From an uncultured Elusimicrobia bacterium (GTDB taxonomy: Bacteria > Elusimicrobiota > Elusimicrobia > Elusimicrobiales > UBA9959): 64,000 bases of DNA. Shown piece after piece: positions 4,554 through 55,738 of the stretch (its first letter is position 1; every line of letters starts with the position of its first letter). The translations under genes were made by a program, and so were the position numbers. The notes beneath the pieces were generated by a model. The model searched no databases and had not been told where the DNA came from. It saw nothing but the letters and a program-made list of their open reading frames with translations. The stretch covers positions 220 through 64,219 of the forward strand of contig CAISZM010000027.1 in the NCBI GenBank assembly GCA_903889965.1, read 5' to 3'.

Positions 4554-4557
4554 AGCC

Positions 4558-4839
4558 TCACACGAGCGCGGATACCGCCAGCAGCGCCAGCACCATTACG
4601 GAAGCAAGCGCGAAATAATCCTCCCCGCCCCGCCAGTAGCCGTAAACCAGCATGACCACGCGCGCGGCGGGAGTGAGCAGCAGCGCGAGGAGCCCCGCCT
4701 TAAGTATGCCTGCGCCCTGGGGAGAACCGGAGATCAAAAAAGCGAATCCGGTAAATATAAGCGCGGAGCTCAGGAATACCCCGGCCAGGAGCGTGCGCTG
4801 TATAAGTTTAGAAAATTTTTTATCGTTAAATGTATCCAT
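4558..4839 (-). CDS. Small membrane protein, DUF1634-like
   Basis: The 93-aa ORF has three hydrophobic segments. It lies immediately downstream of a TauE/SafE gene, which is the usual partner of DUF1634 proteins. Confidence 0.6.
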   Translation of the reverse strand: MDTFNDKKFSKLIQRTLLAGVFLSSALIFTGFAFLISGSPQGAGILKAGLLALLLTPAARVVMLVYGYWRGGEDYFALASVMVLALLAVSALV

Positions 4840-4858: not shown

Positions 4859-5704
4859 CTAGAACGCCGTCATCAGCATCTTCACACCCACAAGCAGCGT
4901 CAGCGCTGAAAAAGCCAGCTGCAGCTTCTCCGCCCTGACGCGGTACAGCGCGTACATGCCCAGGAACGAGCCTATAAGCACGCCCAGCACCGTAACGGCC
5001 GTAACCTCCAGCGGCATCAACCCCCTGCGGAAATAGACATACGCGCTGGCCGCGGCCGAGACGCCAATGATAAAGTTGCTCGTGGCGGCGGCGGCCTTCA
5101 TAGGCACGCCGCACATCAGGTTCATCACCGGCACCTGAACTATGCCGCCCCCTATGCCGAGCAGTCCGGACAGGGAGCCGGCCACAAAGGAAACTAAAGA
5201 GGCCGGTGCTATGTTGCGCACCCCGTACGAGGTATGCGCCGCCAGGGCCGGGTCGAAGAAGGCCGAATCGAAAGACGAACTTCCCCCCGCCCCGGGCGCG
5301 GCGGCGGAAACCGGCTTTTTCAGCGAATGCCTCCCCTTCATGAACATCAGGACCGACGCGGGGAAAAGCATGAGCGCGAACATCAGCTGCACGGAGCCTG
5401 CGTCGAGCCGGCTCGACACCAGCGCCCCGGCTATGGACCCCGCCGCGGTAGTGACCTCCAGCGTTATCCCGAGCCTGATGTTGGCGAGCCCGCGCTCGAC
5501 GTTCACCGCAGCGACGGCGCTTGACGTGGCTATTATGGCGGCGAGCGAGGCCGCCACCGCCTGGTGTATGGGTATCTTGAGGACAAGCACCAGGAAGGGC
5601 ACCATAAATATGCCGCCCCCTACACCCAGGGCGGACCCGAGAAGGCCCACAAAAACGCCCATGGCCAGCAGCATAATGAAATTAAACGCGGTAAGCTCGA
5701 ACAT
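4859..5704 (-). CDS. TauE/SafE family anion (sulfite/organosulfonate) exporter
   Basis: The 281-aa polytopic ORF has duplicated G-x-GGG motifs (LGSALGVGGGIFMVP and LSGLLGIGGGIVQVP), typical of TauE/SafE. Confidence 0.85.
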   Translation of the reverse strand: MFELTAFNFIMLLAMGVFVGLLGSALGVGGGIFMVPFLVLVLKIPIHQAVAASLAAIIATSSAVAAVNVERGLANIRLGITLEVTTAAGSIAGALVSSRLDAGSVQLMFALMLFPASVLMFMKGRHSLKKPVSAAAPGAGGSSSFDSAFFDPALAAHTSYGVRNIAPASLVSFVAGSLSGLLGIGGGIVQVPVMNLMCGVPMKAAAATSNFIIGVSAAASAYVYFRRGLMPLEVTAVTVLGVLIGSFLGMYALYRVRAEKLQLAFSALTLLVGVKMLMTAF

Positions 5705-14077: not shown

Positions 14078-14105
14078 AAGCCTGAGACCTTTCAGGCTTT
14101 TTTTG
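14078..14105 (+). terminator. Intrinsic terminator-like hairpin downstream of the GAF/HD-GYP gene
   Basis: AAGCCTGA (14078-14085) pairs with TCAGGCTT (14093-14100) across a 7-nt loop and runs into a T tract (through 14105). It begins 27 nt after the stop codon. Confidence 0.55.
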
Positions 14106-14156
14106 CGTCCGGACGCCTGAAAGACGGCGGAGGAACGCCCGTAAAAGCGCGCCCCG

Positions 14157-16855: not shown

Positions 16856-18438
16856 TTTTTATAAACCTTAAGCACCAGTATATCGGGGTTCATGAAATTC
16901 ACCTGGTTGTCCATGTTCTGGTAGTTGAAAGGGAGCATATAGGCCGGAAGCTTCCGTGAAAACCGCTTCACCTCGCGCGTCCCGGCGAATATATCATCGA
17001 GCGCCTCGTTCCCGCGCGGATATTGCGCGGGGTGGGCCCGCATAAGGCTGTACTCCTGTTCGGACATCACCACGTAATCGGCCTGCCGGTATGTTTTGGA
17101 AAGGCCAAGGACTCCCTCCTCGATCGGCGCCTGGGATGGGGCCCCCTCGGAGATCCTGAACGGGCCGGTGTGCCGCCGTATGACGAACGGGGTCCAGGTA
17201 TCGTTTTTCGCTATGGCCAGGGCCGAGTCAGCCGGCAGGTTCTCCCGTATCCAGGAATCAGCCTCTTTTATGGTATAAGCGGAGAGATAATTCCCCTTTA
17301 TATAAAGCGTGAACAGCAGGGCCTGCAGCAGCACGGCCGAAACCAGGATTTTTCCGAAGCGGCGGTCCAGCATGGAGTCGGCAAGGTCGCCCGCCGCCAG
17401 AAAGAGGAAGGGGAGGACCGGGAGCGTGTAAAGCACGTATGTTCCGCTGGTGCTGCCGGCCCAGGCCATGAACAAGACGCAAAAAACGGCGGAGATCCTC
17501 TTTTCCGCGCGGCCTGAGAAAAGCCAGCGCGCCGCCCCGGCGAGGGCGAACGGCACCAGGGCCCAGCCCATGGCCGCCGGCAGAACGGAAAGGAAATATT
17601 CCTTATAGGAAACCAGGCCTTTCCACGAAACGGCGCCTTTCGAGACATTCCCCAGTATGATCCCGATCTCGTCTCCCGGCCTTATCAGGAAATATGGATT
17701 GCAGAGGAGGAAAGCGGCGGATCCGGCGCAGGCGAAGAGAAACACTTTTTTAAACCCCGACAAGGGGGCCCGGGCCTTGAGCGCGCTGCTCAAGTGGGCG
17801 GCCAGCGGGAAGAATATAAAGAGCGCCGCGCTGTACTTGGTGATAAACGCTAGCCCCGAAAAGAACCCGGCCAGCAGGTAATTCCTGGCCGAAGGCTCCC
17901 GCAGCAGGCGGAAGGAGAAATAGACGGCCGCAAGCGCCCAGAAGATCATGTTGCTGTCCGTCTTCACCAGGAAAGACGCCATTACGGGAGCCTGCGCCAC
18001 GGCCATCAACAGCGCCGAAACCAGGGCCGCACGCCTGGGCAGGAAAAGAGCGCCTGTCAAATACAAAAGCAGGACCGATAAAACGCCGTACAAAACCGAA
18101 AGCAGGCGGACGGCGAGGTACATCTTATCGGCCTCCCCGAGAGAGGCTTTAAGTTCCTCGCGGCCGCCTATCTTTATGACCCCCGCAAGCTGCAGGCTTT
18201 TAAGCAGCGCGCCGGAAGAGTACAGGTGAAAAGTGCCCCAGTTAAGCGCATCTCCCGGGAAAAAATCGAGTTTGCCCGGCTTCATCCGCTCGAGCGAGTA
18301 GAAGGTCACGGATTCGTCGGGGTGCAGCGTGGTAAGCCCGCCGGTTTCGGAAGGAAGGCCGAGCTTCAGGCCCGCCAGGCGCAACCCGAGGGCCGCGGTC
18401 AGAAACAAATAAAGAGGCAGGTTTTTTTTAAATTTCAT
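16852..18438 (-). CDS. GT39/ArnT-like membrane glycosyltransferase (PMT_2-type)
   Basis: The 528-aa ORF has a polytopic N-terminal two thirds and a soluble C-terminal domain. An early-loop acidic motif (LHPDES) and the overall ArnT/PMT-like architecture support the call, which is made from recalled resemblance. Confidence 0.7.
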   Translation of the reverse strand: MKFKKNLPLYLFLTAALGLRLAGLKLGLPSETGGLTTLHPDESVTFYSLERMKPGKLDFFPGDALNWGTFHLYSSGALLKSLQLAGVIKIGGREELKASLGEADKMYLAVRLLSVLYGVLSVLLLYLTGALFLPRRAALVSALLMAVAQAPVMASFLVKTDSNMIFWALAAVYFSFRLLREPSARNYLLAGFFSGLAFITKYSAALFIFFPLAAHLSSALKARAPLSGFKKVFLFACAGSAAFLLCNPYFLIRPGDEIGIILGNVSKGAVSWKGLVSYKEYFLSVLPAAMGWALVPFALAGAARWLFSGRAEKRISAVFCVLFMAWAGSTSGTYVLYTLPVLPFLFLAAGDLADSMLDRRFGKILVSAVLLQALLFTLYIKGNYLSAYTIKEADSWIRENLPADSALAIAKNDTWTPFVIRRHTGPFRISEGAPSQAPIEEGVLGLSKTYRQADYVVMSEQEYSLMRAHPAQYPRGNEALDDIFAGTREVKRFSRKLPAYMLPFNYQNMDNQVNFMNPDILVLKVYKK

Positions 18439-18656
18439 GCATTACCCCGCCGTTTTCCATCGGGAGACGGCGGGAATATCTTCGTCATTCCACTCTCATT
18501 TTACCTTCCCTTGCGGCCGTTGTCCAGTTTCCCGTCTTGCGGCGGCGGCCGGTTCCCGCGCCGGGGACGGCACGTTAACGTGCCCCCGCTGAAAGGGATC
18601 GACGCCGGCGGAAAAGCCCTGGCGGCCATGGGAAAACCGCACAGGCCATTTTTTTA

Positions 18657-18662
18657 TATAAT
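18657..18662 (+). promoter_or_regulatory. TATAAT -10-like hexamer upstream of degT-like gene
   Basis: An exact TATAAT follows a T-run (TTTTTTTATATAAT) in the 291-nt divergent spacer, 68 nt upstream of the ATG at 18730. There is no convincing -35. Confidence 0.3.
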
Positions 18663-18729
18663 TCAAGTTGTAGCAAGTCAGACGACCGAACAAACCGCCG
18701 AAGGCGGGGCTGTTCTTAAGGAGAACATT

Positions 18730-19848
18730 ATGAAAGTACCCATGGTAGACATGCTTGCCGGCTATCCCCCCATAAAGGACGAAATCGAAACGGCGGTGAA
18801 AAACGTTTTTAATAAAGCAAATTTCATACTGGGTGAAGAGGTTGCCAGGTTCGAGAAGGACTTCGCCGCGCACGTGGGCGCGAAGTACGCCGTAGGCGTA
18901 GCCAACGGCACGGACGCCCTGCGCCTCGCCATTATCGCGAGCGGGATAAAGCCCGGAGACGAGGTTATAACCTCGCCCTTCACCTTCATAGCCACCTCCG
19001 AGACCATCAGCCAGTGCGGCGCCATCCCGGTTTTCGCCGACATAGACCCGGTGACCTACAACCTGGACCCCAAGTCCGTTGAAAAGAAGATAACTAAAAA
19101 GACCAGGGGCATCATACCGGTACACCTCTACGGCATGCCCTGCGATATGGACGCCTTCACCGCCCTTGCCAAGAAACACAAGCTTAAGATCATCGAGGAC
19201 ACGGCGCAGGCCTTTACGGGAAAATACAAGCTGCGCGGCGACTGGAAATACCTGGGCTCCATAGGCGACTGCGGCACCTTCAGCTTCTTCCCGGCCAAGA
19301 ACCTCGGCGCTTTCGGGGACGGAGGCGCGGTAGCCACCAGCGACGACAGGATATACGAGGAACTTAAAGCGCTCAGGAACCACGGCAGCAAGGTCCGCTA
19401 CATGCACGAAATGGAAGGCTACAACTCCCGCCTCGACACCGTGCAGGCCGCCGTCCTTTCCGTGCGCCTCAAGCACGTGGAAAAATGGACCGAGATGCGC
19501 AATGCCGTGGCCGCGAAATACGCCGAAGCGCTCAAGGGCGTCTGCGTCACCCCGGTCGTGCCGTCGAACGCCAGGCACTCCTTCAACTACTACACGATAC
19601 GCTTCGACACCAAGGCCAAGCGCGATAACGCGCAGAAATACCTGACCGAGCAGGGCATAGCCAACCAGATATACTATCCCATAGCGCTGCACCTGCAGAA
19701 GGCCTACGCGCACCTCGGCGGCAGGAAAGGCGACCTGCCCGTTTGCGACCAGGTGCAGGACACGGTCTTCTCCCTTCCTATGTACCCGGAACTCACCGAC
19801 TCACAGATAAAGACCGTTACCGACGCGGTAAAAGCCTCGCTTAAATAA
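18730..19848 (+). CDS. DegT/DnrJ/EryC1/StrS family sugar aminotransferase
   Basis: I chose the ATG at 18730, preceded by AAGGAGAA (18718-18725). The sequence from MKVPMVDML..ILGEEVARFEKDFAAHVGAKYAVGVANGTDAL.. is typical for the family. The 168 upstream codons of the ORF-track entry (18226) look non-coding (Arg/Gly/Pro-rich). Confidence 0.9.
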   Translation: MKVPMVDMLAGYPPIKDEIETAVKNVFNKANFILGEEVARFEKDFAAHVGAKYAVGVANGTDALRLAIIASGIKPGDEVITSPFTFIATSETISQCGAIPVFADIDPVTYNLDPKSVEKKITKKTRGIIPVHLYGMPCDMDAFTALAKKHKLKIIEDTAQAFTGKYKLRGDWKYLGSIGDCGTFSFFPAKNLGAFGDGGAVATSDDRIYEELKALRNHGSKVRYMHEMEGYNSRLDTVQAAVLSVRLKHVEKWTEMRNAVAAKYAEALKGVCVTPVVPSNARHSFNYYTIRFDTKAKRDNAQKYLTEQGIANQIYYPIALHLQKAYAHLGGRKGDLPVCDQVQDTVFSLPMYPELTDSQIKTVTDAVKASLK

Positions 19849-22589: not shown

Positions 22590-23711
22590 TCAGCCGCAGA
22601 AAGCCCTGACCGCTTCTATGACCGCGCCCTGCTGATCCCCGGTCATCTCGGGGAATATCGGCAGGGAAAGCACCATGGATTGGTGCCTGAAAGCGTTGGG
22701 GTAATCCCCTGGCCGCGCTCCCAGCCGCGCGTAGGCCGGCAGGAAGGGCAGCGCCGCAGGGTAATTTATAACGGTTTCTATACCGCGCTCGGCCAGAAAC
22801 TTTTTAAGCTCGTCCCGCCGGGGATGCCGCACCGCGTAAAGGTGGTAAACGTGCTCGCGGCCGCCGGAGACTATAGGTATTTCAAGTTCGCTGAGCCCGG
22901 CCAGTTCCCTGTCGTAGACGGAAGCGAGCCGCCGCCGCGCGGCGGTCCAGGCCTCAAGGTGTTTCATCTTCACCGACAGTATTGCCGCCTGCAGGCCGTC
23001 CATCCTGCTGTTCATGCCCTCTATGCGGTGGTCGCCCTTCGAGAGGCCGCCATGCCGCGCGAACATGGCCATACGCTCCGCCAGCACGCCGTCCGCGGTA
23101 AGTATGGCGCCGGCGTCGCCCATGGCCCCGAGGTTCTTGCCGGGATAAAACGAGAAGGCGGCCGCGCTGCCGAAAGTGCCCGCGGCCTTGCCGGCGCAGC
23201 GCGCCAAGTGGGCCTGCGCGCAATCCTCAAGCACCCACAAGCGGTGTTTTGCCGCTATGGCCATGATAGCCGGCATGTCGGCCGGCTGGCCGTAGAGGTG
23301 CACCGGTATTATGCCGACCGTGCGCGGGTTTATCTTAGCCTCTATCAGCGCGGGGTCTATGGTAAAGGTGTCCAGGTCGGTATCGCAGAAAACCACGTTC
23401 CCGCCGGCCTGGGTTATGGTCTCGCTGGTGGATATCCAGGAATGGGCCGTCGTTATCACCTCGTCCCCGGATTTTACGCCCAGCGCGCGCATGGCTATGT
23501 AGAGCGCGTCGGTGCCGTTGCCGCAGGAGACGCAGTGCGCCGCGCCCGTCAGCGCCGCGAATTCTTTCTCAAAGGCGTCCACGTAGGGCCCGCGTATGAA
23601 GGCGGAGGAGCCTATCACGCCGCAGATGGCGGCGTCTATTTCCCGCTTTATCGAGAGATACTGGGCGTGCAGGTCGGCGAAAGGGACTTTGGCCGCGGGC
23701 TTTTCGCTCAT
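22590..23711 (-). CDS. DegT-family aminotransferase, WbpE/WlbC-like (3-oxo sugar aminotransferase)
   Basis: It is a typical DegT sequence (..IRGPYVDAFEKEFAALTGAAHCVSCGNGTDALYIA..) and lies in an operon with a Gfo/Idh/MocA oxidoreductase and an LbH acetyltransferase. Confidence 0.85.
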   Translation of the reverse strand: MSEKPAAKVPFADLHAQYLSIKREIDAAICGVIGSSAFIRGPYVDAFEKEFAALTGAAHCVSCGNGTDALYIAMRALGVKSGDEVITTAHSWISTSETITQAGGNVVFCDTDLDTFTIDPALIEAKINPRTVGIIPVHLYGQPADMPAIMAIAAKHRLWVLEDCAQAHLARCAGKAAGTFGSAAAFSFYPGKNLGAMGDAGAILTADGVLAERMAMFARHGGLSKGDHRIEGMNSRMDGLQAAILSVKMKHLEAWTAARRRLASVYDRELAGLSELEIPIVSGGREHVYHLYAVRHPRRDELKKFLAERGIETVINYPAALPFLPAYARLGARPGDYPNAFRHQSMVLSLPIFPEMTGDQQGAVIEAVRAFCG

Positions 23712-25253: not shown

Positions 25254-25372
25254 ACAAGAATCCTATTGTATCATTATCTTATTGATAATTACCCGTTTGC
25301 CTAAACGGCTCAAAAGAGGATATTATATGGGAAAGCGCAAGGCCGCGGGGCCCGCGGCATGAGGGAGTTTAA

Positions 25373-32584: not shown

Positions 32585-33403
32585 ATGTCAAAGTCCGGCA
32601 ACTTTTACCTCTTGGGAGGCCGGGAGCTCCGGCTTGCCGGCGCGCTGATAGGCCTTATCTTCCTCTCCGGGGCGGCCTATGTGCTCTGGCTGCCCGACGT
32701 TTCCGGTCTGAAGACCAAAAACCCGACAGAGACCTCCTACATGCGCATACGCACCCTGCAGGCCAAGGCACAGGGAAAGAAGGCGGAGCGGCAGTTCTAC
32801 TGGACCCCCTGGGACGGTATTTCCGAAAACCTGAAACACGCGGTGCTGGTGGCGGAGGACGGCGGCTTCTACCAGCACAAAGGCGTGGACTGGGAAAGCA
32901 CGCTCCAGGCGCTTAAGACCGACTGGAAGAAGCGGCGTTTCGCCAATGGCGGCAGCACGATCACTCAGCAGGTGGCCCGGAACCTCTACCTTTCTCCCTC
33001 CAAGAACCCCCTCAGGAAAATAAAGGAGATACTTATCGCCCGCAGGCTGGAGAGCGAGCTTGGCAAGCGGCGCATTTTCGAGATCTACCTCAATGTAGCG
33101 GAGTGGGGCAAGGGGATATACGGCGCCCAGGCCGCAGCGGAAGCCTACTTCGGTAAAAACGCCTCGGACCTGACGCCGGAAGAAGGGGCGGCGCTGGCGG
33201 CCGCGCTGCCGAGCCCGCGCCGTTACAATCCTGCCGGCGGAACGCGCTTCATGGAGCGCCGCATAGGCACTATAGTGGCCCGCATGCGCGCCTCCGGCTA
33301 CCTGCCGGAGGAAACCGACGACGGTCTTTTAGATGAAAACGAAGTGACAGGTTCAACAGAAACCGCCGCAACCCCCCAAGCAGCCCCAGAAACCACCCCT
33401 TAA
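32585..33403 (+). CDS. mtgA: Monofunctional biosynthetic peptidoglycan transglycosylase (GT51)
   Basis: It has an N-terminal TM anchor and the GT51 motifs EDGGFYQHKGVDW, GGSTITQQVARNL and RKIKEILIARRLE. Confidence 0.9.
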   Translation: MSKSGNFYLLGGRELRLAGALIGLIFLSGAAYVLWLPDVSGLKTKNPTETSYMRIRTLQAKAQGKKAERQFYWTPWDGISENLKHAVLVAEDGGFYQHKGVDWESTLQALKTDWKKRRFANGGSTITQQVARNLYLSPSKNPLRKIKEILIARRLESELGKRRIFEIYLNVAEWGKGIYGAQAAAEAYFGKNASDLTPEEGAALAAALPSPRRYNPAGGTRFMERRIGTIVARMRASGYLPEETDDGLLDENEVTGSTETAATPQAAPETTP

Positions 33404-33419
33404 TACACAATTTTGTGAC

Positions 33420-33483
33420 GGCAGGCCTGCAAGTGCGCTGGGGTCGGATGGGATATTCCCCTGCTCGCCCGGGAAGGGGAAAC
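33420..33483 (+). repeat. Conserved 64-nt module, copy A (inverted relative to copy B)
   Basis: The sequence is GGCAGGCCTGCAAGTGCGCTGGGGTCGGATGGGATATTCCCCTGCTCGCCCGGGAAGGGGAAAC. It aligns by hand with the reverse complement of 34751-34812 at 56 of 64 columns (6 mismatches and one 2-nt gap). Confidence 0.85.
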
Positions 33484-33662
33484 TTGGGTTCGCTGGTCAT
33501 GCCGGCGGGTTGGATTCATCAGGCACGCGGCGGCCACACCGTGGCCGCGCTCCGCACTCGGCCGCCGGGCTTATGCAACCGGCGGCCTCCGCGAGGGCCT
33601 TCTTCACCAACCCGCCGTCACCCGCTCCACAGATAGGCCTGCCGTTTCTGTTTTTATTTTTT
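33420..33662 (+). ncRNA. Candidate structured RNA / structured 3' element, copy A (unclassified)
   Basis: An 8-bp closing helix (33420-33427 with 33636-33643) is followed by GTTTCTGTTTTTATTTTTT. A 10-bp long-range helix (33504-33513 with 33607-33616) encloses perfect hairpins at 33530-33548 and 33560-33587. It lies downstream of mtgA on the same strand. Confidence 0.4.
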
Positions 33663-34544
33663 AATCTTCAATCCCGCCTTTATCAGGGCGGCTTTCAGCG
33701 GGGCGCGGCGGGGCTCCGTCAGCGTCGTGAGCGGCAGGCGCGGCTCTGGCCGGCATAGGCCGAGAAGTGAAGCTGCGTATTTTACCGGGATGGGGTTGGT
33801 TTCGGCGAAAAGCGCCTTTACCAGAGGGAACAGCTTGTGGTGGATAGCGGCCGCGCCCGCCGTATCGCCCTCCAGGAACCGGGCGCACATCCTGGCTGCC
33901 TCAGCCGGCGCGACGTTCGACACCACCGAAATTACCCCTTTCGCGCCCACCGCCATCATTGGCAGAGTAAGGGAATCGTCCCCGCTCATCACAGTAAAGC
34001 CATCGTCCGCCCCATTGATTATTTCGCTGACTTGGTCGAGATTGCCTGAGGCCTCCTTGATACCCACGATATGAGGGAACTTTCTGCGCAGGCCGAGAGT
34101 TGTAGCGGGCAGCATATTCACTCCGGTGCGGCCCGGGATATTGTAGAGCACGATAGGCAGGCGCGTGGCCCTGGCCAGTTCCGAAAAGTGCGCCGTCATC
34201 CCCTCCTGCGTGGGCTTATTGTAGTAGGGCACTATGGCCAGCAGGCCGTCCACTCCCAGCTTTGAAACACTTTTAACCATCTCTACCGATTTAGCGGTGG
34301 AATTGGTGCCGACACCGGGTATAACGGGAACCTTCCCTCCCGCGGCCGCGACTACCGTCTTTATGACGGCCAGGTATTCTTCCGTAGAAAGCGTGGCGGC
34401 CTCGCCGGTGGAGCCGCAAGGCACAAGCCCGCTAACCCCCCTCTCTATCTGGAAACGGACTATCTTTTTGAGGGCCTCCATATCCACCTTGCCGTTCCTG
34501 AACGGCGTGACTATGGCGGTAAAAGTTCCTTTCAATTTAAGCAT
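33654..34544 (-). CDS. dapA: 4-hydroxy-tetrahydrodipicolinate synthase
   Basis: The 296-aa ORF has typical DapA sequence (GTFTAIVTPF, GLVPCGSTGEAATLS, and the Schiff-base Lys region GIKEASGN). GGAGG (rc of 34549-34553) lies upstream of the ATG. Confidence 0.93.
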   Translation of the reverse strand: MLKLKGTFTAIVTPFRNGKVDMEALKKIVRFQIERGVSGLVPCGSTGEAATLSTEEYLAVIKTVVAAAGGKVPVIPGVGTNSTAKSVEMVKSVSKLGVDGLLAIVPYYNKPTQEGMTAHFSELARATRLPIVLYNIPGRTGVNMLPATTLGLRRKFPHIVGIKEASGNLDQVSEIINGADDGFTVMSGDDSLTLPMMAVGAKGVISVVSNVAPAEAARMCARFLEGDTAGAAAIHHKLFPLVKALFAETNPIPVKYAASLLGLCRPEPRLPLTTLTEPRRAPLKAALIKAGLKIKK

Positions 34545-34592
34545 GAAACCTCCAGTAAACTAAATTTATCCCTTCTGTGTTTGCCGCGCGCT

Positions 34593-34598
34593 ATTTTA
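34593..34598 (-). promoter_or_regulatory. TAAAAT -10-like hexamer between element B and the dapA RBS
   Basis: The reverse complement of 34593-34598 is TAAAAT, about 50 nt upstream of the dapA ATG. The best -35 candidate is weak (TTCGCC with an 18-nt spacer). Confidence 0.25.
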
Positions 34599-34812
34599 AG
34601 ATTTAAAAACAAGGCAGGCGAATAACAGGCGCGGGGGCCGGCGATTGTTGAGGACGGCCCTTGACCGGGAGGGCGGGGTGTTACCCTGAGCGCCCGTTGC
34701 GGAAAGGGGGCCCCGCCATCAAAGTCTGGCGGGGGGAAACCGACGCAAGGGTTTCCTCTTCCCGGGCGAGCAGGGTAATATCCCGCCCGACCCGCGCACC
34801 AGCAGGCCTGCC
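34599..34812 (-). ncRNA. Candidate structured RNA / leader or 3' element, copy B (unclassified)
   Basis: On the minus strand, the closing helix GGCAGGC (34812-34806) pairs with GCCTGCC (34619-34613) and is followed by TTGTTTTTAAATC. A second helix pairs GCGCGGG (34797-34791) with CCCGCGC (34635-34629). Internal perfect hairpins include 34756-34735 (7-bp stem). The element lies between dapF and dapA. Confidence 0.4.
34751..34812 (-). repeat. Conserved module, copy B
   Basis: The minus strand reads GGCAGGCCTGCTGGTGCGCGGGTCGGGCGGGATATTACCCTGCTCGCCCGGGAAGAGGAAAC. See copy A for the alignment. Confidence 0.85.
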
Positions 34813-34890
34813 GATAATTTGCCATATCGTTCAACTTGAAATCTTTCTCCTATAAAATAACTGCCATCCGTACGACAAAAAACGGAGAAC

Positions 34891-35697
34891 TTAAATCGTT
34901 ATATCTCCATTGAACACAATTTTCGCCGGGCCCTGTATGTAAATATCAGAGGCCCCCGCGCCGGCGGCCTTGAGCCAGACGCGGAAGGTCTCGCCGCTTC
35001 GCGCCACAAGCGTCACCGGGGCCTTCACCCGCCCCGCCAGAGTAAGCGCCACGGCGCTGGCCGTTATCCCCGTTCCGCAGGCGAGCGTCTCCGCCTCGAC
35101 ACCGCGCTCGTAGGTGCGCACATGTATTTTCCCGCCGCGGATGTGCACAAAATCCACATTGGTACCCTTCGGGCCGAAAGCCTTGTTATACCTGAGGGAA
35201 CGGCCAAGGTTATGCACGTCCGCATGCTCAAGCCCCCCCATAGGCACCACGGCGTGCGGCACGCCCGTGTTCAGGAAATACACCGTTTTCACACCGGCCG
35301 GATAACCGCCCCTGTGCCCGAGCTTCACGTCCCCGACGTCCGGCATCCGCATCCTGACGCTCTCCGGCCCCTTTATCTCCACCGGCAGTTCGCCGCTTAT
35401 CGTTTTCAACGTGAATTTTTTCCCTTTCACGAGCCCCGCGGAGTAAGCCCACCAGGCCGAACAGCGCGAACCGTTGCCGCAGAAGGCCTCGGATCCGTCC
35501 GAATTGAAATAACGCATGCTGACGGCGTTTTTCCCGGCGCCCCCCACATAGAGCAACCCGTCCGCGCCTACAGCCAGTTTCTGCGCGCAGAGCCTTATGG
35601 CCAGCTTTTTAAGGGTTCCAGTCCCAAGGCGCCCGCCGGTCAGCAGGACGAAATCGTTGCCCGCCCCGGACATTTTCCAGAAATTTATTTTTCGCAT
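34891..35697 (-). CDS. dapF: Diaminopimelate epimerase
   Basis: The 268-aa ORF has an N-terminal FWKMSGAGNDFVL motif and the two catalytic Cys motifs (FFNSDGSEAFCGNGSRC-type region and the ETLACGTGITA region). Confidence 0.92.
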   Translation of the reverse strand: MRKINFWKMSGAGNDFVLLTGGRLGTGTLKKLAIRLCAQKLAVGADGLLYVGGAGKNAVSMRYFNSDGSEAFCGNGSRCSAWWAYSAGLVKGKKFTLKTISGELPVEIKGPESVRMRMPDVGDVKLGHRGGYPAGVKTVYFLNTGVPHAVVPMGGLEHADVHNLGRSLRYNKAFGPKGTNVDFVHIRGGKIHVRTYERGVEAETLACGTGITASAVALTLAGRVKAPVTLVARSGETFRVWLKAAGAGASDIYIQGPAKIVFNGDITI

Positions 35698-50278: not shown

Positions 50279-53200
50279 GTGGAACGCTTCTCGCTCTCTG
50301 CGCGGGCGGTTTCCGTTCGCCCGGAAAGAGGATTTCAGAGAACAGTGAAAGCGACCACAACGATACTGCCGCTCCTGGCCCTGGCCATATTCGCCGCCCC
50401 CTCCCGCGCGGCCGATTTCGCCGTTCCGAAACCGGACGGCGGACGTTTCCTGCTGCTTGACAGGCAGGAAGGCGGGAACATACTCGAGGAACCCGAAATA
50501 TCCACCGAAGCCGATAGCGGCGACCTGGAAAAGATATCCGGGGAGCTTCCTTTCTCCTATAGCGAGGATTCGTGGAATTCCGCGCGCGAAGCCGTGGAAA
50601 CGGGCCGTTTCGGGAGCGATGAACTTGCCGCGCCGGCGCCGGCGGAAGCGTCCGCGGAGGAACCGCTGGAGCCCGAGCCGCAGGTTGAGTTCACCGAGTC
50701 GGGAACCAGCCTTTCCGTGACCGGCCGCAAGATAATAACGGTCAACTACAGCGGCAAAAAATACCTGAGCAGCCAGACCACCCTGACGCGCGCGCGCTCG
50801 CTGAGCCTGTTCGAGATAACGCAGCAGATGCAGGTGCGCATGCAGGGCAAGGTGGGACAGAAGATCAGCGTCAACGTCGACTACGACGACACCAAGCAGG
50901 ACAAGCAGGACATCTCGGTAGTCTACCAGGGAGACCCCAACGAGGTGGTGCAGAACGTCTCCTTCGGCGACATTGACCTTTCGCTTCCGGCCACCGAGTT
51001 CGTCTCCTACAACAAGCAGTTGTTCGGCATCCGGACGGACCTGAAGACCAAGAGCCTCAAATTCACCTTCGTAGGGTCCCGCACAAAAGGCCAGAGCAAG
51101 ACCAAGCAGTTCACCGGGAACACCCAGTTCCAGGCCGTTGACCTGCTCGACACCAGCTACCTGCGCCGCAAATACTACGACGTGACCTTCGGCTGCAATA
51201 CGGTTTCCTGCATGCGCCTGCCCATAAAGTCCGGAACGGAGCGCATCTATATAGACCAGCAGACGCAGGCCCAGGTGGACGGGATCTCAGTACTGGCCCT
51301 TACGGGCAAGGACATGGCGGTGCAGTCCACCGGCTACACGGGCCGCTTCCAGCTTATGAGCCCCGGTATAGATTACGTGATGGACTACTCCAAGGGCCTG
51401 GTGACTTTCAACCGCAACCTGAACCCCCAGGACGTCGTCATGATCGACTTCCAGAACGCCGACGGCACCCGCCTGTCCCAGAACGGGTCTCCCCTGTCGA
51501 CTACGGCCGACGCCCTTCCCGGGGAAATACTCCCGGCCATAATAAAGCCGCCCAGCGACATCGCGCTGTCCTCTGTTACGGCCATAGCCGACCTGCAGGT
51601 CTCGCACAAGCGTGAACTCAAGACCTACTACGCCATAGGCCAGACCAATATAGTGCGCGACAACGGCAACGGCAATTTTACGCTTAAGGTGCAGGACCTC
51701 AACCGCAATTCCGTCAGCGTTGCCGGGTACAACCCCTCGGAGGGCAACCCGGCTATAAAATACCCCGACACGGTAGAGGTGGATTTCGAACAGGGAATAA
51801 TACACCTGAAAAACCCGTTCATGTCGGATTCGTCCCCCGGCACTATGGACGAACAGGTCTACTCCGCCGCGCCGGTGTCGAAACGCATAATCCGGGTCGA
51901 GTATTCCTACCGCTTCAAGACCTTCCTGCTGGAGCCGAGCATAGTGCTGCAGTCGGAGTCGGTCCGCGTTGACGGGAAGAAGCTGGGCCGCAACGAGGAT
52001 TATTTCATAGACTACGACTCCGGCTTCATCACCTTCTACTACCCCGATCGCATCGGGCAGGACTCGAAGATAGACATAACCTACGAAGTTTCCCAGTTCG
52101 GCGGCATGGGCAACCAGTCGCTGGTCGGAGGCCGGATCTCCTACGATTTCGGCACCCACTTCTCGCTCGGTTCCACGGTACTCTACCAGGGAGGCGTAAA
52201 GACCAACTCCGTCCCCAACGTGACCGACCTGACCAACAGCATGCTTGTTTACGAGGGCGACGCGCAGCTGAAGGGCCTGAACCTCCTGGGTCTGCACAGC
52301 ACCCTCGGCGCGGAGGCCGCCCAGAGCCGGCTTAACCCGAACCTGAACAGCTTCGCGCTGATAGACAACATGGAGGGCGTGAAGCAGGAAGATTCCCCGT
52401 CGATGGACAAGAACTACTGGTTCATCGCCGCCAACCCCGGGGTCCCGGCAGACCCGCTGGCGCTGGACTGGTACAACGAGAACATGAAATCCATAGACAT
52501 AAACCCCGCGGCCACCTCGGACGGCACGCAGCAGGTGCTGAGCATAAATTATGATTTCCGCGTTTCCTCCGAAGTTTCAATAGTCTACCCCCTTTCGCTC
52601 ACCGGGCTGGACTTCTCGCAGAAGAACATGCTGGAACTGGTGGTGCACGGGGAGAATTCGCCCTCGGACGCCGGTCCGCAGATCAATATACACCTCGGGC
52701 AGATAAGCGAGGACGCGGACGGCGCGGGCGGGCAGAACTTCGTCTGCGCCTCCGGGTTGGCCCTGACCGGCTCTCCGAAAAGCGAGGACCTGAACTGCGA
52801 CTCACAGGTTTCAAGCTCGGAAGATATCGGCTGGCTGTACGCCCCGGCGGCCTCCGCGCACACGAAACGCTACGGAGCCGCTAACGGCCGCCTGGACTCG
52901 GAAGACCTCAACAAGAACGGCCGCCTGGATTACGGCGATTTCACGGGCGGCGATTTCGGCTACGTGAACGGCACAGAATTCAAGGATACGGACCCGTCCG
53001 AGGCCCCGAAGAACTATGTCGATTTCAACGGCTGGCACACGCTTTATATGCCCCTGGTGATAACTTCCACCGACACTTTCAAATGGAACGCGGTAAAGCA
53101 GGTGCGCCTTTCGCTCAGGCAGAGACCCGGCGGCGCCGACCACGGCGTGATAAAATTCGCCCGCATCTCCGCGGTGGGAAATACCTGGACCGTTATGACC

Positions 53201-55738
53201 AGCACCGCCGCCGGCCTGATGCAGGCGGTGGCCGTGAACAACCTGGACAACGTATACACCCCTATCTACGAGGCAGGAGGGGACGCCACCGCGGTATTCA
53301 ACGACCTTTACGGCTCGGTTTCGGAACTGCGGCAGAAGAGCAACTCCAACAACATAACGGAGCAGTCTTTGTCGATGATATACGACAACATCTGCTCCAC
53401 TTCCACGGTCTACGTTTACCGCAAGTTCACGGTCGCCGTAGACATCTCCCAGCACGCCGAACTCCGCTTTCTGGTGCGCGGCCCCAACAACGATGCGGCG
53501 GTCACCGACCCCGACGCCCCTGGCTCCAGCTTCTACATAAAGGCCGGTGACGCTAACAATTATTTCAAGGCTTCCATCCCGCTTAACTTTACCGGGTGGA
53601 AACTGGTAAAGATCAGCCAGCAGGACCTGACCGGTGACAAGGTGCCGGACGTCTGGGCCCCGCTCACCCCGGGAGTGGAGATCTCCTCCCGCGGCACCCC
53701 AAGCCTGCAGCAGGTGCCCCAGTTCATAGTCGGGGTGGAGTCCAACGACGGCAACTGCCACTCCGGCACCGCGTATTTCAACGAGCTGCACCTGTCCGGG
53801 CCTATTTCGCGCACGGGCAACGCGCGCAAGGTGGAGGGCTCTTTCGAGATCCCCGGCTGGCTCAATTTCGGCGGCAAGCACAGGTTCATTGACCGCAGCT
53901 TCCAGACGCCGGTGACCGCCATAACCAACCAGGACAACGAGCAGCAGACCGGCTATCTCAACATAACCCGCCTGCCCTTCTTCCCGGTCAACGTCACGGC
54001 GTCGCACCAGATAACCGTAACCCCCAACGCCCTGGTTACAGGGGCAAACAACCTGGTCAACTCGCTGCAGCAGGGACGCGTCAAAAAATTCGACGGAACG
54101 GCCGCCGGTTCGCTCAGCCTCAGCTACCTGCCGAAACTCGGGCTTAACTACACCAAGGGGATAACCGACTACGACCTGCTCAGCCGCAGGGACGACAATG
54201 ACCTTTACGCCGCCAGCCTCTCTTACACGGTTCCGGGCACGCTGGCGATAACCCCGCGCACGATAAACCTCGATTACTCCCTGGGCCGCAGCAAGGTAGG
54301 TTACGACTCCAGCCGCCTGATACTCCTGGGAGGGCTTTTCAATACGGACGACCGCACCGACATATACAGCGGGAAGTTCTCCTTCGTCCCCTGGAACGGT
54401 TCTTCGTTCAACCCCAGCTACAGCCTGCAGACGGCCCGCGAGGAGCGTTCCCCCCTCTCGGACCCGCTGGCGGTCGAGCGCTATCCAAAATCCATGCAGC
54501 AGACCGCGGACTTCAACTCCAATTTCCTTCTCACGCGCTGGCTGAACCCGTCGGTTAATTACTCCGTGAGCACCATAGAGAACAATAATCTCAACATCAC
54601 CACGGTAACCATCGCCCAATCCTCCCAGACATTCACCGCGGGGCAGATAAAGAGCGTTAACCGCAGCGCCCAGGGCGGGGTAAGCCTTACCCTGAGCATG
54701 AACAGCTTTCTGCCCGCGAACCGCCTCCTGCGCTCCATGGTGTTCTCTTCCAACTACCAGATACAGGACGGCGACTCCTGGGAGAATGTGGAAAAAGGCT
54801 TCGACACCAAAGCGCGCCTCTGGCTGAGGGACTCGTTCAAGCCCTCCAGCCCCTTCGCCCAGAGGACCTCCATAACGCTGCGCGACACGGTCAGCTCCTC
54901 GCAGCGGTGGCAGCCTTTCGAAGGCTACGGCTTCAAGGGACCGGCGTCGTCGCTGAACACGCTGTCCCTGACCAATAATTTCACGAACTCGGTACAGCGT
55001 TCCGAGGTGACCGGCACCGTCTCGCGGAGCGTAAACCGGACCTTCCCCGATATGATATTTTCAATATCGCAGCTGGAGGCGCTGACGCGCACAAGGCGCT
55101 GGGCACAGAACGCCACGCTTAACCTGAAGTATTCGCGCAACACCAACGAAGCGCAGCGTGTTTCGCTGGATGAATCAAGCGCCTACGGCATGGACCTGCG
55201 CTTCAAGCTGCTGAACTGCGTGGACGCGGCCACCAGCTACAATACGCGCCTGGCCGAAAAGCGGGACCTGCGCGTAAACCAGCTGACGCAGAGCTCGCGC
55301 CACGACGACGCCACCCTGCAGGGAACCTTCGACTACAAGAAGTTCCGCTTCACGCCCAAAACCGACTTCGTTTCCGACAAAGCGGAAGGCACGCTGGGAG
55401 TGGTGACGCAAAACACGCGTACGATAACGCCAAGCCTCCTGATAAAGTCGGACTTCCAGCTGCCCAAGGGACTCAAGCTGCCGTTCACGAACAGGACGAT
55501 CATATTCACCAACCGCATCGTGTGGACCACCACGCTGAGCTACGCCATCAAGACCTCCCCCATCACCATTGCCGACAACAACAGGCTTTTCTCGCTCAAC
55601 TCGAACGCCGACTACGAGGCATCCAAGAACCTGCGGCTGTCCTTCAACCTAGGGCTGCAGCGGCTATGGAACAAATACCTCAAGCAGGAAGAGTATGTTT
55701 CCTACCAGGCCGGCAGCACCCTGACTTTCCAGTTCTAG
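50279..55738 (+). CDS. Giant (1819 aa) outer-membrane beta-barrel protein, SprA/Sov-like (type IX secretion translocon family) by recalled motif resemblance
   Basis: It has a signal-peptide-like segment KATTTILPLLALAIFAAPSRA|ADF; an alternative GTG start at 50345 would put it at the N-terminus. An acidic linker follows. The C-terminal beta-signal is ...YQAGSTLTFQF. The blocks GKVGQKISVNVDYDD, VVYQGDPNEVVQNVSFGDIDLSLP, NKQLFGIRTDLK, LGQISEDADG and VIKFARISAVGNTW resemble conserved SprA blocks as I remember them. That this is a real CDS is near certain; the family call is tentative. Confidence 0.6.
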   Translation: MERFSLSARAVSVRPERGFQRTVKATTTILPLLALAIFAAPSRAADFAVPKPDGGRFLLLDRQEGGNILEEPEISTEADSGDLEKISGELPFSYSEDSWNSAREAVETGRFGSDELAAPAPAEASAEEPLEPEPQVEFTESGTSLSVTGRKIITVNYSGKKYLSSQTTLTRARSLSLFEITQQMQVRMQGKVGQKISVNVDYDDTKQDKQDISVVYQGDPNEVVQNVSFGDIDLSLPATEFVSYNKQLFGIRTDLKTKSLKFTFVGSRTKGQSKTKQFTGNTQFQAVDLLDTSYLRRKYYDVTFGCNTVSCMRLPIKSGTERIYIDQQTQAQVDGISVLALTGKDMAVQSTGYTGRFQLMSPGIDYVMDYSKGLVTFNRNLNPQDVVMIDFQNADGTRLSQNGSPLSTTADALPGEILPAIIKPPSDIALSSVTAIADLQVSHKRELKTYYAIGQTNIVRDNGNGNFTLKVQDLNRNSVSVAGYNPSEGNPAIKYPDTVEVDFEQGIIHLKNPFMSDSSPGTMDEQVYSAAPVSKRIIRVEYSYRFKTFLLEPSIVLQSESVRVDGKKLGRNEDYFIDYDSGFITFYYPDRIGQDSKIDITYEVSQFGGMGNQSLVGGRISYDFGTHFSLGSTVLYQGGVKTNSVPNVTDLTNSMLVYEGDAQLKGLNLLGLHSTLGAEAAQSRLNPNLNSFALIDNMEGVKQEDSPSMDKNYWFIAANPGVPADPLALDWYNENMKSIDINPAATSDGTQQVLSINYDFRVSSEVSIVYPLSLTGLDFSQKNMLELVVHGENSPSDAGPQINIHLGQISEDADGAGGQNFVCASGLALTGSPKSEDLNCDSQVSSSEDIGWLYAPAASAHTKRYGAANGRLDSEDLNKNGRLDYGDFTGGDFGYVNGTEFKDTDPSEAPKNYVDFNGWHTLYMPLVITSTDTFKWNAVKQVRLSLRQRPGGADHGVIKFARISAVGNTWTVMTSTAAGLMQAVAVNNLDNVYTPIYEAGGDATAVFNDLYGSVSELRQKSNSNNITEQSLSMIYDNICSTSTVYVYRKFTVAVDISQHAELRFLVRGPNNDAAVTDPDAPGSSFYIKAGDANNYFKASIPLNFTGWKLVKISQQDLTGDKVPDVWAPLTPGVEISSRGTPSLQQVPQFIVGVESNDGNCHSGTAYFNELHLSGPISRTGNARKVEGSFEIPGWLNFGGKHRFIDRSFQTPVTAITNQDNEQQTGYLNITRLPFFPVNVTASHQITVTPNALVTGANNLVNSLQQGRVKKFDGTAAGSLSLSYLPKLGLNYTKGITDYDLLSRRDDNDLYAASLSYTVPGTLAITPRTINLDYSLGRSKVGYDSSRLILLGGLFNTDDRTDIYSGKFSFVPWNGSSFNPSYSLQTAREERSPLSDPLAVERYPKSMQQTADFNSNFLLTRWLNPSVNYSVSTIENNNLNITTVTIAQSSQTFTAGQIKSVNRSAQGGVSLTLSMNSFLPANRLLRSMVFSSNYQIQDGDSWENVEKGFDTKARLWLRDSFKPSSPFAQRTSITLRDTVSSSQRWQPFEGYGFKGPASSLNTLSLTNNFTNSVQRSEVTGTVSRSVNRTFPDMIFSISQLEALTRTRRWAQNATLNLKYSRNTNEAQRVSLDESSAYGMDLRFKLLNCVDAATSYNTRLAEKRDLRVNQLTQSSRHDDATLQGTFDYKKFRFTPKTDFVSDKAEGTLGVVTQNTRTITPSLLIKSDFQLPKGLKLPFTNRTIIFTNRIVWTTTLSYAIKTSPITIADNNRLFSLNSNADYEASKNLRLSFNLGLQRLWNKYLKQEEYVSYQAGSTLTFQF

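Follow-up and report, generated by a model that had tools for sequence, protein, structure and literature searches.

Intergenic palindromic repeats offer the closest described parallels to the locus presented here. Miniature inverted-repeat transposable elements (MITEs), with Correia/NEMIS, ERIC and RUP as bacterial examples, and repetitive extragenic palindromes (REPs) are characterized by terminal inverted repeats, the lack of a transposase gene, long stem-loops, a high G+C content, a bias towards convergent genes and effects on mRNA stability (PMC3184786). REP, BIME and REPIN elements have been described together with RAYT transposases (PMC3116915, PMC3337134, PMC3733652), and SPRITE is a Rho-independent terminator-like element of Streptococcus pneumoniae (PMC3184786). 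Here we describe two elements, A and B, which lie 1.27 kb apart and in inverted orientation on either side of dapA in 64,000 nt of DNA from an uncultured Elusimicrobia bacterium (assembly GCA_903889965.1, contig CAISZM010000027.1, positions 220 to 64,219; this whole stretch is referred to as the window). They are insertions built from interchangeable modules, occurring in either orientation, folded into nearly pure Watson-Crick helices and with rewritten ends in the neighboring genes. We are inclined, with somewhat more confidence than doubt, to regard them as members of a small Elusimicrobia-specific family of low-copy, GC-rich, palindromic mosaic insertions of about 200 nt that resemble MITEs, REPs and BIMEs and most likely act as bulky terminator or insulator structures. 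Intergenic palindromic mosaic repeats are known as a class; what is new is the phylum and the sequence family.

Like MITEs, A and B are about 200 nt long, non-coding and intergenic, end in inverted repeats and form very stable long stem-loops. Orthologous sites are found both filled and empty: the dapF/dapA junction is empty in 11 relatives, and the spacer between dapA and mtgA is empty at L143, L146 and L121 but filled at L126 and L147 (L numbers denote loci of other genomes). Both elements have changed the ends of adjacent genes, and MITEs, too, can alter gene ends and transcription units. Unlike MITEs, they are seen in two copies only, with no sign of a dispersed family and no cognate transposase in the window, their centre has been swapped between A and B, and their short terminal inverted repeats (7-8 bp) belong to a palindrome, which makes such repeats indistinguishable from a target duplication. 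With REP, BIME and REPIN the elements share G+C-rich imperfect palindromes, mosaic modules in both orientations, strand-symmetric hairpins, a preference for convergent-gene spacers and proposed roles in termination and mRNA 3'-end stability. REP sequences, however, measure 20-40 nt and occur in hundreds of copies, whereas A and B are low-copy multi-hairpin domains of ~200 nt without the terminal GTAG/CGTC tag, and no RAYT is found in the 64 kb. As in SPRITE, the 3' end resembles an intrinsic terminator, i.e. a helix and a U run, by which an insertion brings a transcription stop. SPRITE is nevertheless a simple, multi-copy hairpin of ~105 nt, while the U run of A and B follows the helix closing a branched 200-nt domain and the elements of L126 and L147 have no U run at all.

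The 5' module, read from the plus strand in A and from the minus strand in B, is identical at 56 of 64 alignment columns with a single 2-nt indel. This match had been counted by hand in a first-pass annotation made from the sequence alone, and it holds in the alignment, in blastn (87.7% over 65 nt, E=7e-17) and in the count of its 27-mer core GGGATATTNCCCTGCTCGCCCGGGAAG, with exactly two occurrences in the window where 100 shuffles give an expectation of zero. An inverted-repeat search likewise returned a 43-nt arm common to both at 91% (repeat I2), and the arms match perfectly over 18 nt at most. The same annotation considered the interiors unalignable, which is right for a centre of ~90-110 nt (55% identity versus 51 +/- 3% in shuffles) but wrong for the 3' 78 columns including the tail, which are homologous at 51 positions (65% versus 47 +/- 4%). 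Identity is accordingly patchy: the arm has 88%, the 3' end 65% and the centre none. In A the homology extends from GGCAGGCC through AATCTT, and the tail (TGTTTTTA..AATCTT) belongs to the unit common to both copies. The units are 217-249 nt long, with no transposase or conserved coding capacity, and the U-rich tail lies on the module-first strand only. A palindrome of the CAGGCCTG type is found at or near both ends of all four elements, i.e. A, B and those of L126 and L147. Furthermore, the two ends of A carry AGGCCTGC as a direct repeat (33423-33430 and 33635-33642); B matches it at 6 of 8 positions, L147 has GGCCTGG at both ends, and the motif is not in the L146 empty site. As a palindrome, the motif would look alike as a target-site duplication and as a terminal inverted repeat, and it could be either.

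The dapA loci of 11 relatives were compared, representing 11 different dapA proteins that are 83-86% identical to that of the window. The conserved order is dnaE, response regulator, PFK, OEP, patatin, TPR, dapF and dapA, with mtgA next on the opposite strand. In all 11, dapF and dapA overlap by 1-7 nt, with the ribosome-binding site and ATG of dapA within the end of dapF (..GAAGGAGAGATAAAATGCTGA..), where the window instead has a gap of 346 nt. The spacer holding B is therefore a lineage-specific insertion and not an ancestral dapA leader. Homology between the window and its relatives ends after GGAGATATAA and restarts at ATGCTTAAA, which sets the insert at 34545-34896. The insertion encodes the final two codons of dapF together with its stop (..GDITI-stop, versus ..GEIKC-stop in the relatives), and its 68-nt flank carries a new GGAGG ribosome-binding site for dapA. 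By its arrival B split the ancestral overlap and probably uncoupled dapA from dapF.

B had been placed after the dapF operon; it does lie downstream of dapF, but this description is incomplete, as B is on the dapA strand directly upstream of that gene, 68 nt before its start. A position of this kind, a structured leader of ~200 nt and an end in a helix and U run are what a cis-regulatory dapA leader would show, be it a riboswitch or an attenuator (e.g. lysine-responsive), with A as its decayed or duplicated copy. The genes dapA and lysC are, moreover, classic targets of the lysine riboswitch. Nonetheless, neither the sequence nor the structure of the lysine riboswitch (L-box, RF00168) is matched, no other riboswitch matched even at E<=10, and the upstream position is conserved in none of the 11 relatives, where the leader is missing and dapA is coupled translationally to dapF. 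The closest relative of B, in L147, lies downstream of dapA, the elements A, L126 and L147 are upstream of no gene, and the structure is strand-symmetric (see below). We thus consider a leader quite unlikely.

The spacer between dapA and mtgA is variable. It measures 9 nt in L143, 23 nt in L146 and 63 nt in L121, where it holds a plain hairpin-plus-T terminator; it contains related elements in L126 (GWA2_62_23; 179 nt) and L147 (199 nt), a truncated element copy in L148, and extra genes in L125, L127, L128, L129, L144 and L145. Between L126 and L147 the identity of the dapA proteins is 97%, and L146, at 92%, has an empty spacer; genomes with a dapA identity of 92-97% may thus have the element, lack it, or carry it truncated or flipped. 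This patchiness, together with the absence of the B spacer in 11 relatives, does not support the first-pass proposal of a conserved functional RNA. In the window the C-terminus of dapA reads ..IKAGLKIKK-stop, compared to ..IKAGLLD-stop in the nearest group. It is the complement of the T-rich tail of A that encodes these four new codons together with the stop, from which it follows that the arrival of A, or of its tail, rewrote the 3' end of dapA.

Comparison of the four elements revealed a mosaic. The L126 spacer is homologous to the centre and 3' end of A (blastn 70% over 134 nt, E=1e-7 to 1e-9) but is without the 64-nt module; its closing helix is CCUGUUGCC/GGCAACAGG and its fold z is -7.2. 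The L147 element (fold z = -7.8) has the reverse strand orientation with respect to its neighboring genes and aligns with B in its 5' part and centre, while its final 41 nt match those of L126 at 88%, the two stretches differing both in strand and in the end of the spacer at which they lie. A thus consists of a B-type 5' arm, an L126-like core (type 1), the common 3' module and a T tail, and B of the 5' arm, an L147-like core (type 2), the common 3' module and a T tail. Because the arm in A lacks the partner strand that it has in B and L147, we infer that the 88% identity of the module reflects recent copying or gene conversion between nearby inverted elements rather than a conserved functional motif.

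A further possibility, rather improbable in our estimate, is that the pair is a functionless by-product of a local inverted duplication or template switch that carried part of one element over to the far side of dapA, with later gene conversion keeping the 64-nt arm and the helices persisting as palindromes correct themselves. It would account for two inverted copies so close together around a single gene, for the patchy identity and the orphaned arm of A, and for compensatory changes that are nearly all from one Watson-Crick pair to another. What it does not account for is the core of B, which is not derived from A and matches the L147 type in another genome, so that at least two element types must have pre-existed, nor the AT-rich flanks of B, which have no source near A.

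The inverted pair could also act jointly on dapA, either as an mRNA-end clamp (an RNase III processing stem or stabiliser based on 62-64 nt of 5'/3' complementarity in a transcript that extends from B into the complement of A) or through inversion of the gene. Inverted repeats flanking a transcribed unit form such RNase III stems in rRNA operons, and the predicted duplex between the B arm and the complement of the A arm reaches -121.7 kcal/mol. The B arm is, however, already paired within B, dapA of the relatives works without such a pair, and the longest perfect arm match is short for RecA-mediated inversion. Two other contigs with this dapA (33.6 kb, and L001 of 4.3 kb) also show the same gene order and orientation around it. 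Joint action is for us a very unlikely explanation.

In minimum free energy (MFE) folds, both elements are closed by the helices predicted in the first-pass annotation, GGCAGGCC/GGCCTGCC in A (RNA GGCCUGCC) and GGCAGGC/GCCTGCC in B, and a T-rich run follows in both copies. The internal helices it named were recovered as well: in A that of 33504-33513 with 33607-33616, which encloses two hairpins, and in B the hairpin 34756-34735. Compared to dinucleotide shuffles the fold z is -3.63 for A and -5.10 for B. The supposed functional 5' module fared worse, as its 64 nt have no common fold between A and B. In B it is the 5' strand of a long helix (34771-34788 with 34671-34688), and in L147 it likewise has an internal partner, whereas A has no such partner strand, and there the module folds on itself (UUCCCCU..AGGGGAA). 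Two of the eight differences between A and B fall in the helix-forming region of the module, each bettering the helix of its own copy. The individual folds of A and L126 have the same three-way-junction layout, and their consensus (MAFFT alignment) is no better than that of column shuffles. A sliding-window fold scan of ~206 kb found structured spacers like A and B to be rare and clustered around mtgA and dapA, its outliers including unrelated long palindromes in L129 and L125.

The folds carry no strand signal. In all five elements tested the reverse complement folds as well or better, G-U pairs number 1-6 of ~65 per element on either strand, and the compensatory changes between B and L147 nearly all lead from Watson-Crick to Watson-Crick pairs. 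With both strands folding equally and G-U pairs rare, the palindromy appears to be at the DNA level. Strand symmetry of this sort marks inverted repeats at the DNA level, or sequences used on both strands as between convergent genes, and not an RNA gene transcribed from a single strand.

Under the reading of A and B as mosaic insertions with a terminator or insulator role, a transcribed element would fold as a bulky multi-hairpin domain, with GGCAGGC/GCCUGCC as its closing helix and a run of U's behind it, and this domain may stop transcription or protect the 3' end. A would end the mtgA transcript, its complement structuring the 3' end of dapA, and B would end or attenuate the dapF transcript. 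For its expression dapA might then need read-through or a new start, its own GGAGG site taking over from translational coupling.

Several results weigh against this reading. The hallmark of such repeats is dispersal in many copies; the window has two in 64 kb, both at dapA. Searches with nhmmer (alignment of A, B and L126) and with a covariance model (B and L147) returned only the known elements from the window and ~217 kb of related loci, the latter being a weak copy test since most of it is the same syntenic region. Only dapA-linked copies are seen in ~280 kb of Elusimicrobia DNA, and an exact 19-mer of the module, GGGATATTNCCCTGCTCGCC, gave 13 matches in JGI metagenome contigs, all by chance. 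Among the ~50 open reading frames (ORFs) of the window, Pfam and NCBIfam identified no transposase, integrase or Y1/RAYT gene. Target-site duplication is ambiguous due to the palindromic ends, and the 85-nt and 68-nt AT-rich flanks of the B insertion are not part of the repeat, for which reason simple cut-and-paste of a 217-nt unit does not explain B. As for the terminator role, the U runs (33644-33662 and 34612-34596) follow a helix that closes a ~200-nt domain. Intrinsic terminators are compact GC-rich hairpins with a loop of 3-8 nt and a U run directly after them, and ordinary terminators in this genome are a small hairpin and then T's (14080-14106). A scan of 33000-35200 for consensus sigma-70-like promoters and terminators called no site of either kind, which leaves termination by such a helix conjectural, and the missing U runs of L126 and L147 do not fit the role.

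The conservation of structure between B and L147 is a further point on that side. Their consensus has 38 pairs: in 11 both partners differ, in one a single partner, and no pair is broken, in comparisons of 2 to 4 sequences. Column shuffles reached this number of compensatory pairs twice in 200, with a consensus energy of -17.1 kcal/mol (minimum -29.0) against -49.9 kcal/mol for B and L147. This indicates constraint on structure, which could equally be due to a function at the RNA level; either the structure is under constraint or it is upheld by a palindrome-preserving process. One such RNA-level alternative is that A and B are paralogous stand-alone small RNAs (sRNAs) of ~220 nt with their own promoters, ending at the closing helix and U tail, where the module would be the seed or protein-binding part. 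The strong folds, a U-rich tail restricted to the module-first strand of both copies, the 11 compensatory pairs, an orientation independent of the neighbors, as in free-standing genes, and the lack of a match to any known family would all suit it. Against this stand the lack of a sigma-70-like promoter in 33000-35200 (promoters of Elusimicrobia may differ), the different folds of the module in A and B, its absence from L126, the tailless L126 and L147, the equal folding of both strands with few G-U pairs, the absence of the element from most close relatives and a tail of A that lies inside the dapA coding sequence. Stand-alone sRNAs therefore seem improbable to us. Of the first-pass interpretation as paralogous structured RNAs, the paralogy and the strong structure stand, and the compensatory changes between B and L147 agree with it, but the conserved functional RNA with its 5' module is not supported.

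Unlikely, too, is a variant in which the family is a mobile Elusimicrobia-specific module acting at the RNA level, as a portable insulator, terminator or sRNA gene, with helices under selection. Recruited to both sides of dapA, it would have turned the gene into a separately controlled unit, whose 5' and 3' untranslated regions could pair over ~62 nt (-122 kcal/mol) as an mRNA-end clamp or RNase III stem.

If A and B are indeed palindromic mosaic insertions, they give an initial outline of MITE/REP-like elements in Elusimicrobia, whose members are mostly known through metagenomes, and a clean natural case in which insertion broke a translationally coupled dapF/dapA pair and rewrote the last codons of two genes. 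They also call for caution in RNA-motif discovery, in that strand-symmetric palindromic DNA can by itself give rise to a conserved block, to a closing helix and to compensatory changes. The elements would gain weight if transcript mapping showed them to be portable terminators or to control dapA jointly.

The absence of a known family, noted already in the first-pass annotation, was borne out. No Rfam family matched anywhere in the window at gathering score; at E<=10 the region 33300-34900 gave chance-level matches only, and the L126 and L147 elements nothing credible. An 18-mer, CCCTGCTCGCCCGGGAAG, had at least 119 matches in reference genomes, of which those listed are all chance matches in GC-rich genomes, and is too unspecific for this purpose. 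The 3' module had no match in IMG/VR viral contigs, and the literature on structured RNAs of Elusimicrobia held nothing relevant. 6S RNA, retron msr-msd, IS200/IS605 guide RNA and integron attC were dropped as candidates on anatomy alone: the element is not conserved in relatives, lies next to no reverse transcriptase, TnpB or integrase and has no Rfam match.

Coding capacity was considered separately, as an open forward frame runs through each element (73 aa at 33415-33636 on the plus strand, 100 aa at 34532-34834 on the minus strand), with the module in the same frame after the 2-nt indel and a common peptide, GYxPARPGRGN. The translations had no homolog among 5.8 billion proteins in a word-indexed search, and a full HMMER search of 1.84 billion representatives gave one marginal match (E=1e-4), probably of low complexity, with five matched stretches in a protein of 671 aa. 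On these grounds the elements are non-coding. Public assemblies of this contig have no gene call for either ORF, a protein-level search showed no ORFs called over the other element copies, and the peptides are rich in Arg, Pro and Gly, as expected of a random frame at ~67% GC. That the elements encode small proteins is hardly credible.

Table 1. Elements A and B, their modules and the flanking genes in the window.
Feature	Position	Strand	Evidence
Element A, full repeated unit, from 5' palindrome to end of T-rich tail	33420..33668	+	Alignment, fold
A 5' arm (64-nt module), 88% identical to B arm, without internal partner, local fold UUCCCCU..AGGGGAA	33420..33483	+	
A core type 1, long helix enclosing two hairpins, homologous to the dapA-mtgA spacer of L126 (GWA2_62_23)	33484..33592	+	blastn 70%/134 nt
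A 3' module with closing strand GGCCTGCC, common to B, L126 and L147	33593..33643	+	
A T-rich tail GTTTCTGTTTTTATTTTTTAATCTT; other strand encodes the last four dapA codons (KIKK) and stop	33644..33668	+	
Element B, full repeated unit including tail TTGTTTTTAAATCTTAA	34596..34812	-	Covariance model R1, 228.6 bits
B 5' arm (module)	34751..34812	-	Alignment
B internal 3' arm CAGGGTAACACCCCGCCC, pairs with module 34771-34788; same helix in L147 with different sequence	34671..34688	-	Self inverted repeat 84.6%/26 nt, fold, covariation
B core type 2, two hairpins (GGAAACC/GGUUUCC, CCCCGCC/GGCGGGG), both kept in L147 by compensatory changes	34710..34756	-	
B 3' module with closing strand GCCTGCC	34613..34662	-	
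Lineage-specific dapF/dapA insertion: 85-nt AT-rich flank, B and 68-nt flank	34545..34896	-	Junction comparison, five relatives
mtgA, monofunctional peptidoglycan transglycosylase, upstream of A	32585..33403	+	TIGR02070, 206.5 bits
dapA, 4-hydroxy-tetrahydrodipicolinate synthase, between A and B	33654..34544	-	TIGR00674, 356.7 bits
dapF, diaminopimelate epimerase, upstream of B	34891..35697	-	TIGR00652, 204.7 bits

The genes around the elements are listed in Table 1. After dapF the minus strand continues with TPR and patatin genes, and the rest of the window holds housekeeping genes, i.e. cell-envelope glycosylation, lptF/G, transketolase, PFK and dnaE. Homologs of dapA at 72-86% identity are proteins of metagenome-assembled genomes named Elusimicrobia or Elusimicrobiales. 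Just past the dapF stop, inside the insertion and upstream of B, a weak hairpin, GGAGA(15 nt)TCTCC, is followed by GTTTTTTG (34845-34897, minus strand); this might be the actual dapF terminator, and was not called by the consensus terminator scan.

Among the relatives, the dapA-mtgA junction is a hot spot of changing gene content in close Elusimicrobia, where there may be no insert at all, a hairpin terminator, an element of palindromic type or an additional gene. The latter is an unannotated gene of ~525 aa with a faint Glyco_transf_22 match in L127, L128, L129, L144 and L145, and a response regulator of 136 aa in L125. Other palindromes are found next to mtgA, in the spacer that separates it from an amine-oxidase gene. 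In L129 (13285-13511, GCA_028688015.1) this spacer holds an element of ~190 nt and 69% GC, closed by a perfect 20-bp helix (GGAACCGGAGGGCCCGCUGC/GCAGCGGGCCCUCCGGUUCC) and with z ~ -6.5 on both strands, whose sequence is unrelated to the dapA-linked family, the sole common motif being CCTATTATTCGG. In L125 (12196-12290, GCA_001799795.1) it holds an AT-rich perfect inverted repeat of ~27 bp (GGGGACGCTCTTAGTTAATTAGTTTTT ... AAAAACTAATTAACTAAGAGCGTCCCC), the second strongest structural outlier of the 206-kb fold scan. Strong fold outliers were also the divergent GT2/GFO_IDH spacers of L126 (17199-17674) and L121 (16346-16550), which have a conserved start (..CTATTGA..TCTATATGATATCCTCTTTTGCCC) and both carry the long inverted repeat GGGGTCAGGTCTTGA...TCAAGACCTGACCCC; the equivalent spacer of the window (25254-25372, 119 nt) is without it.

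Elsewhere in the window, the spacers 4554-4769 and 5115-5563 are unstructured (z ~ -0.3) and probably coding. The longest inverted repeat (I1; 19108-19179 and 23244-23315), with 72 nt at 71% complementarity and arms 4 kb apart within coding regions, is probably related coding sequence or chance. A stretch of 708 nt without a chosen ORF (17518-18225) precedes an ORF of 540 aa (18226-19848, plus strand) in which the DegT/DnrJ/EryC1 domain begins only at residue 183; the gene model at 17518-19848 is uncertain and could reflect a fused N-terminal domain or a mis-set start. Lastly, an ORF of 1819 aa on the plus strand (50279-55738) has no Pfam match at E<=1e-5.

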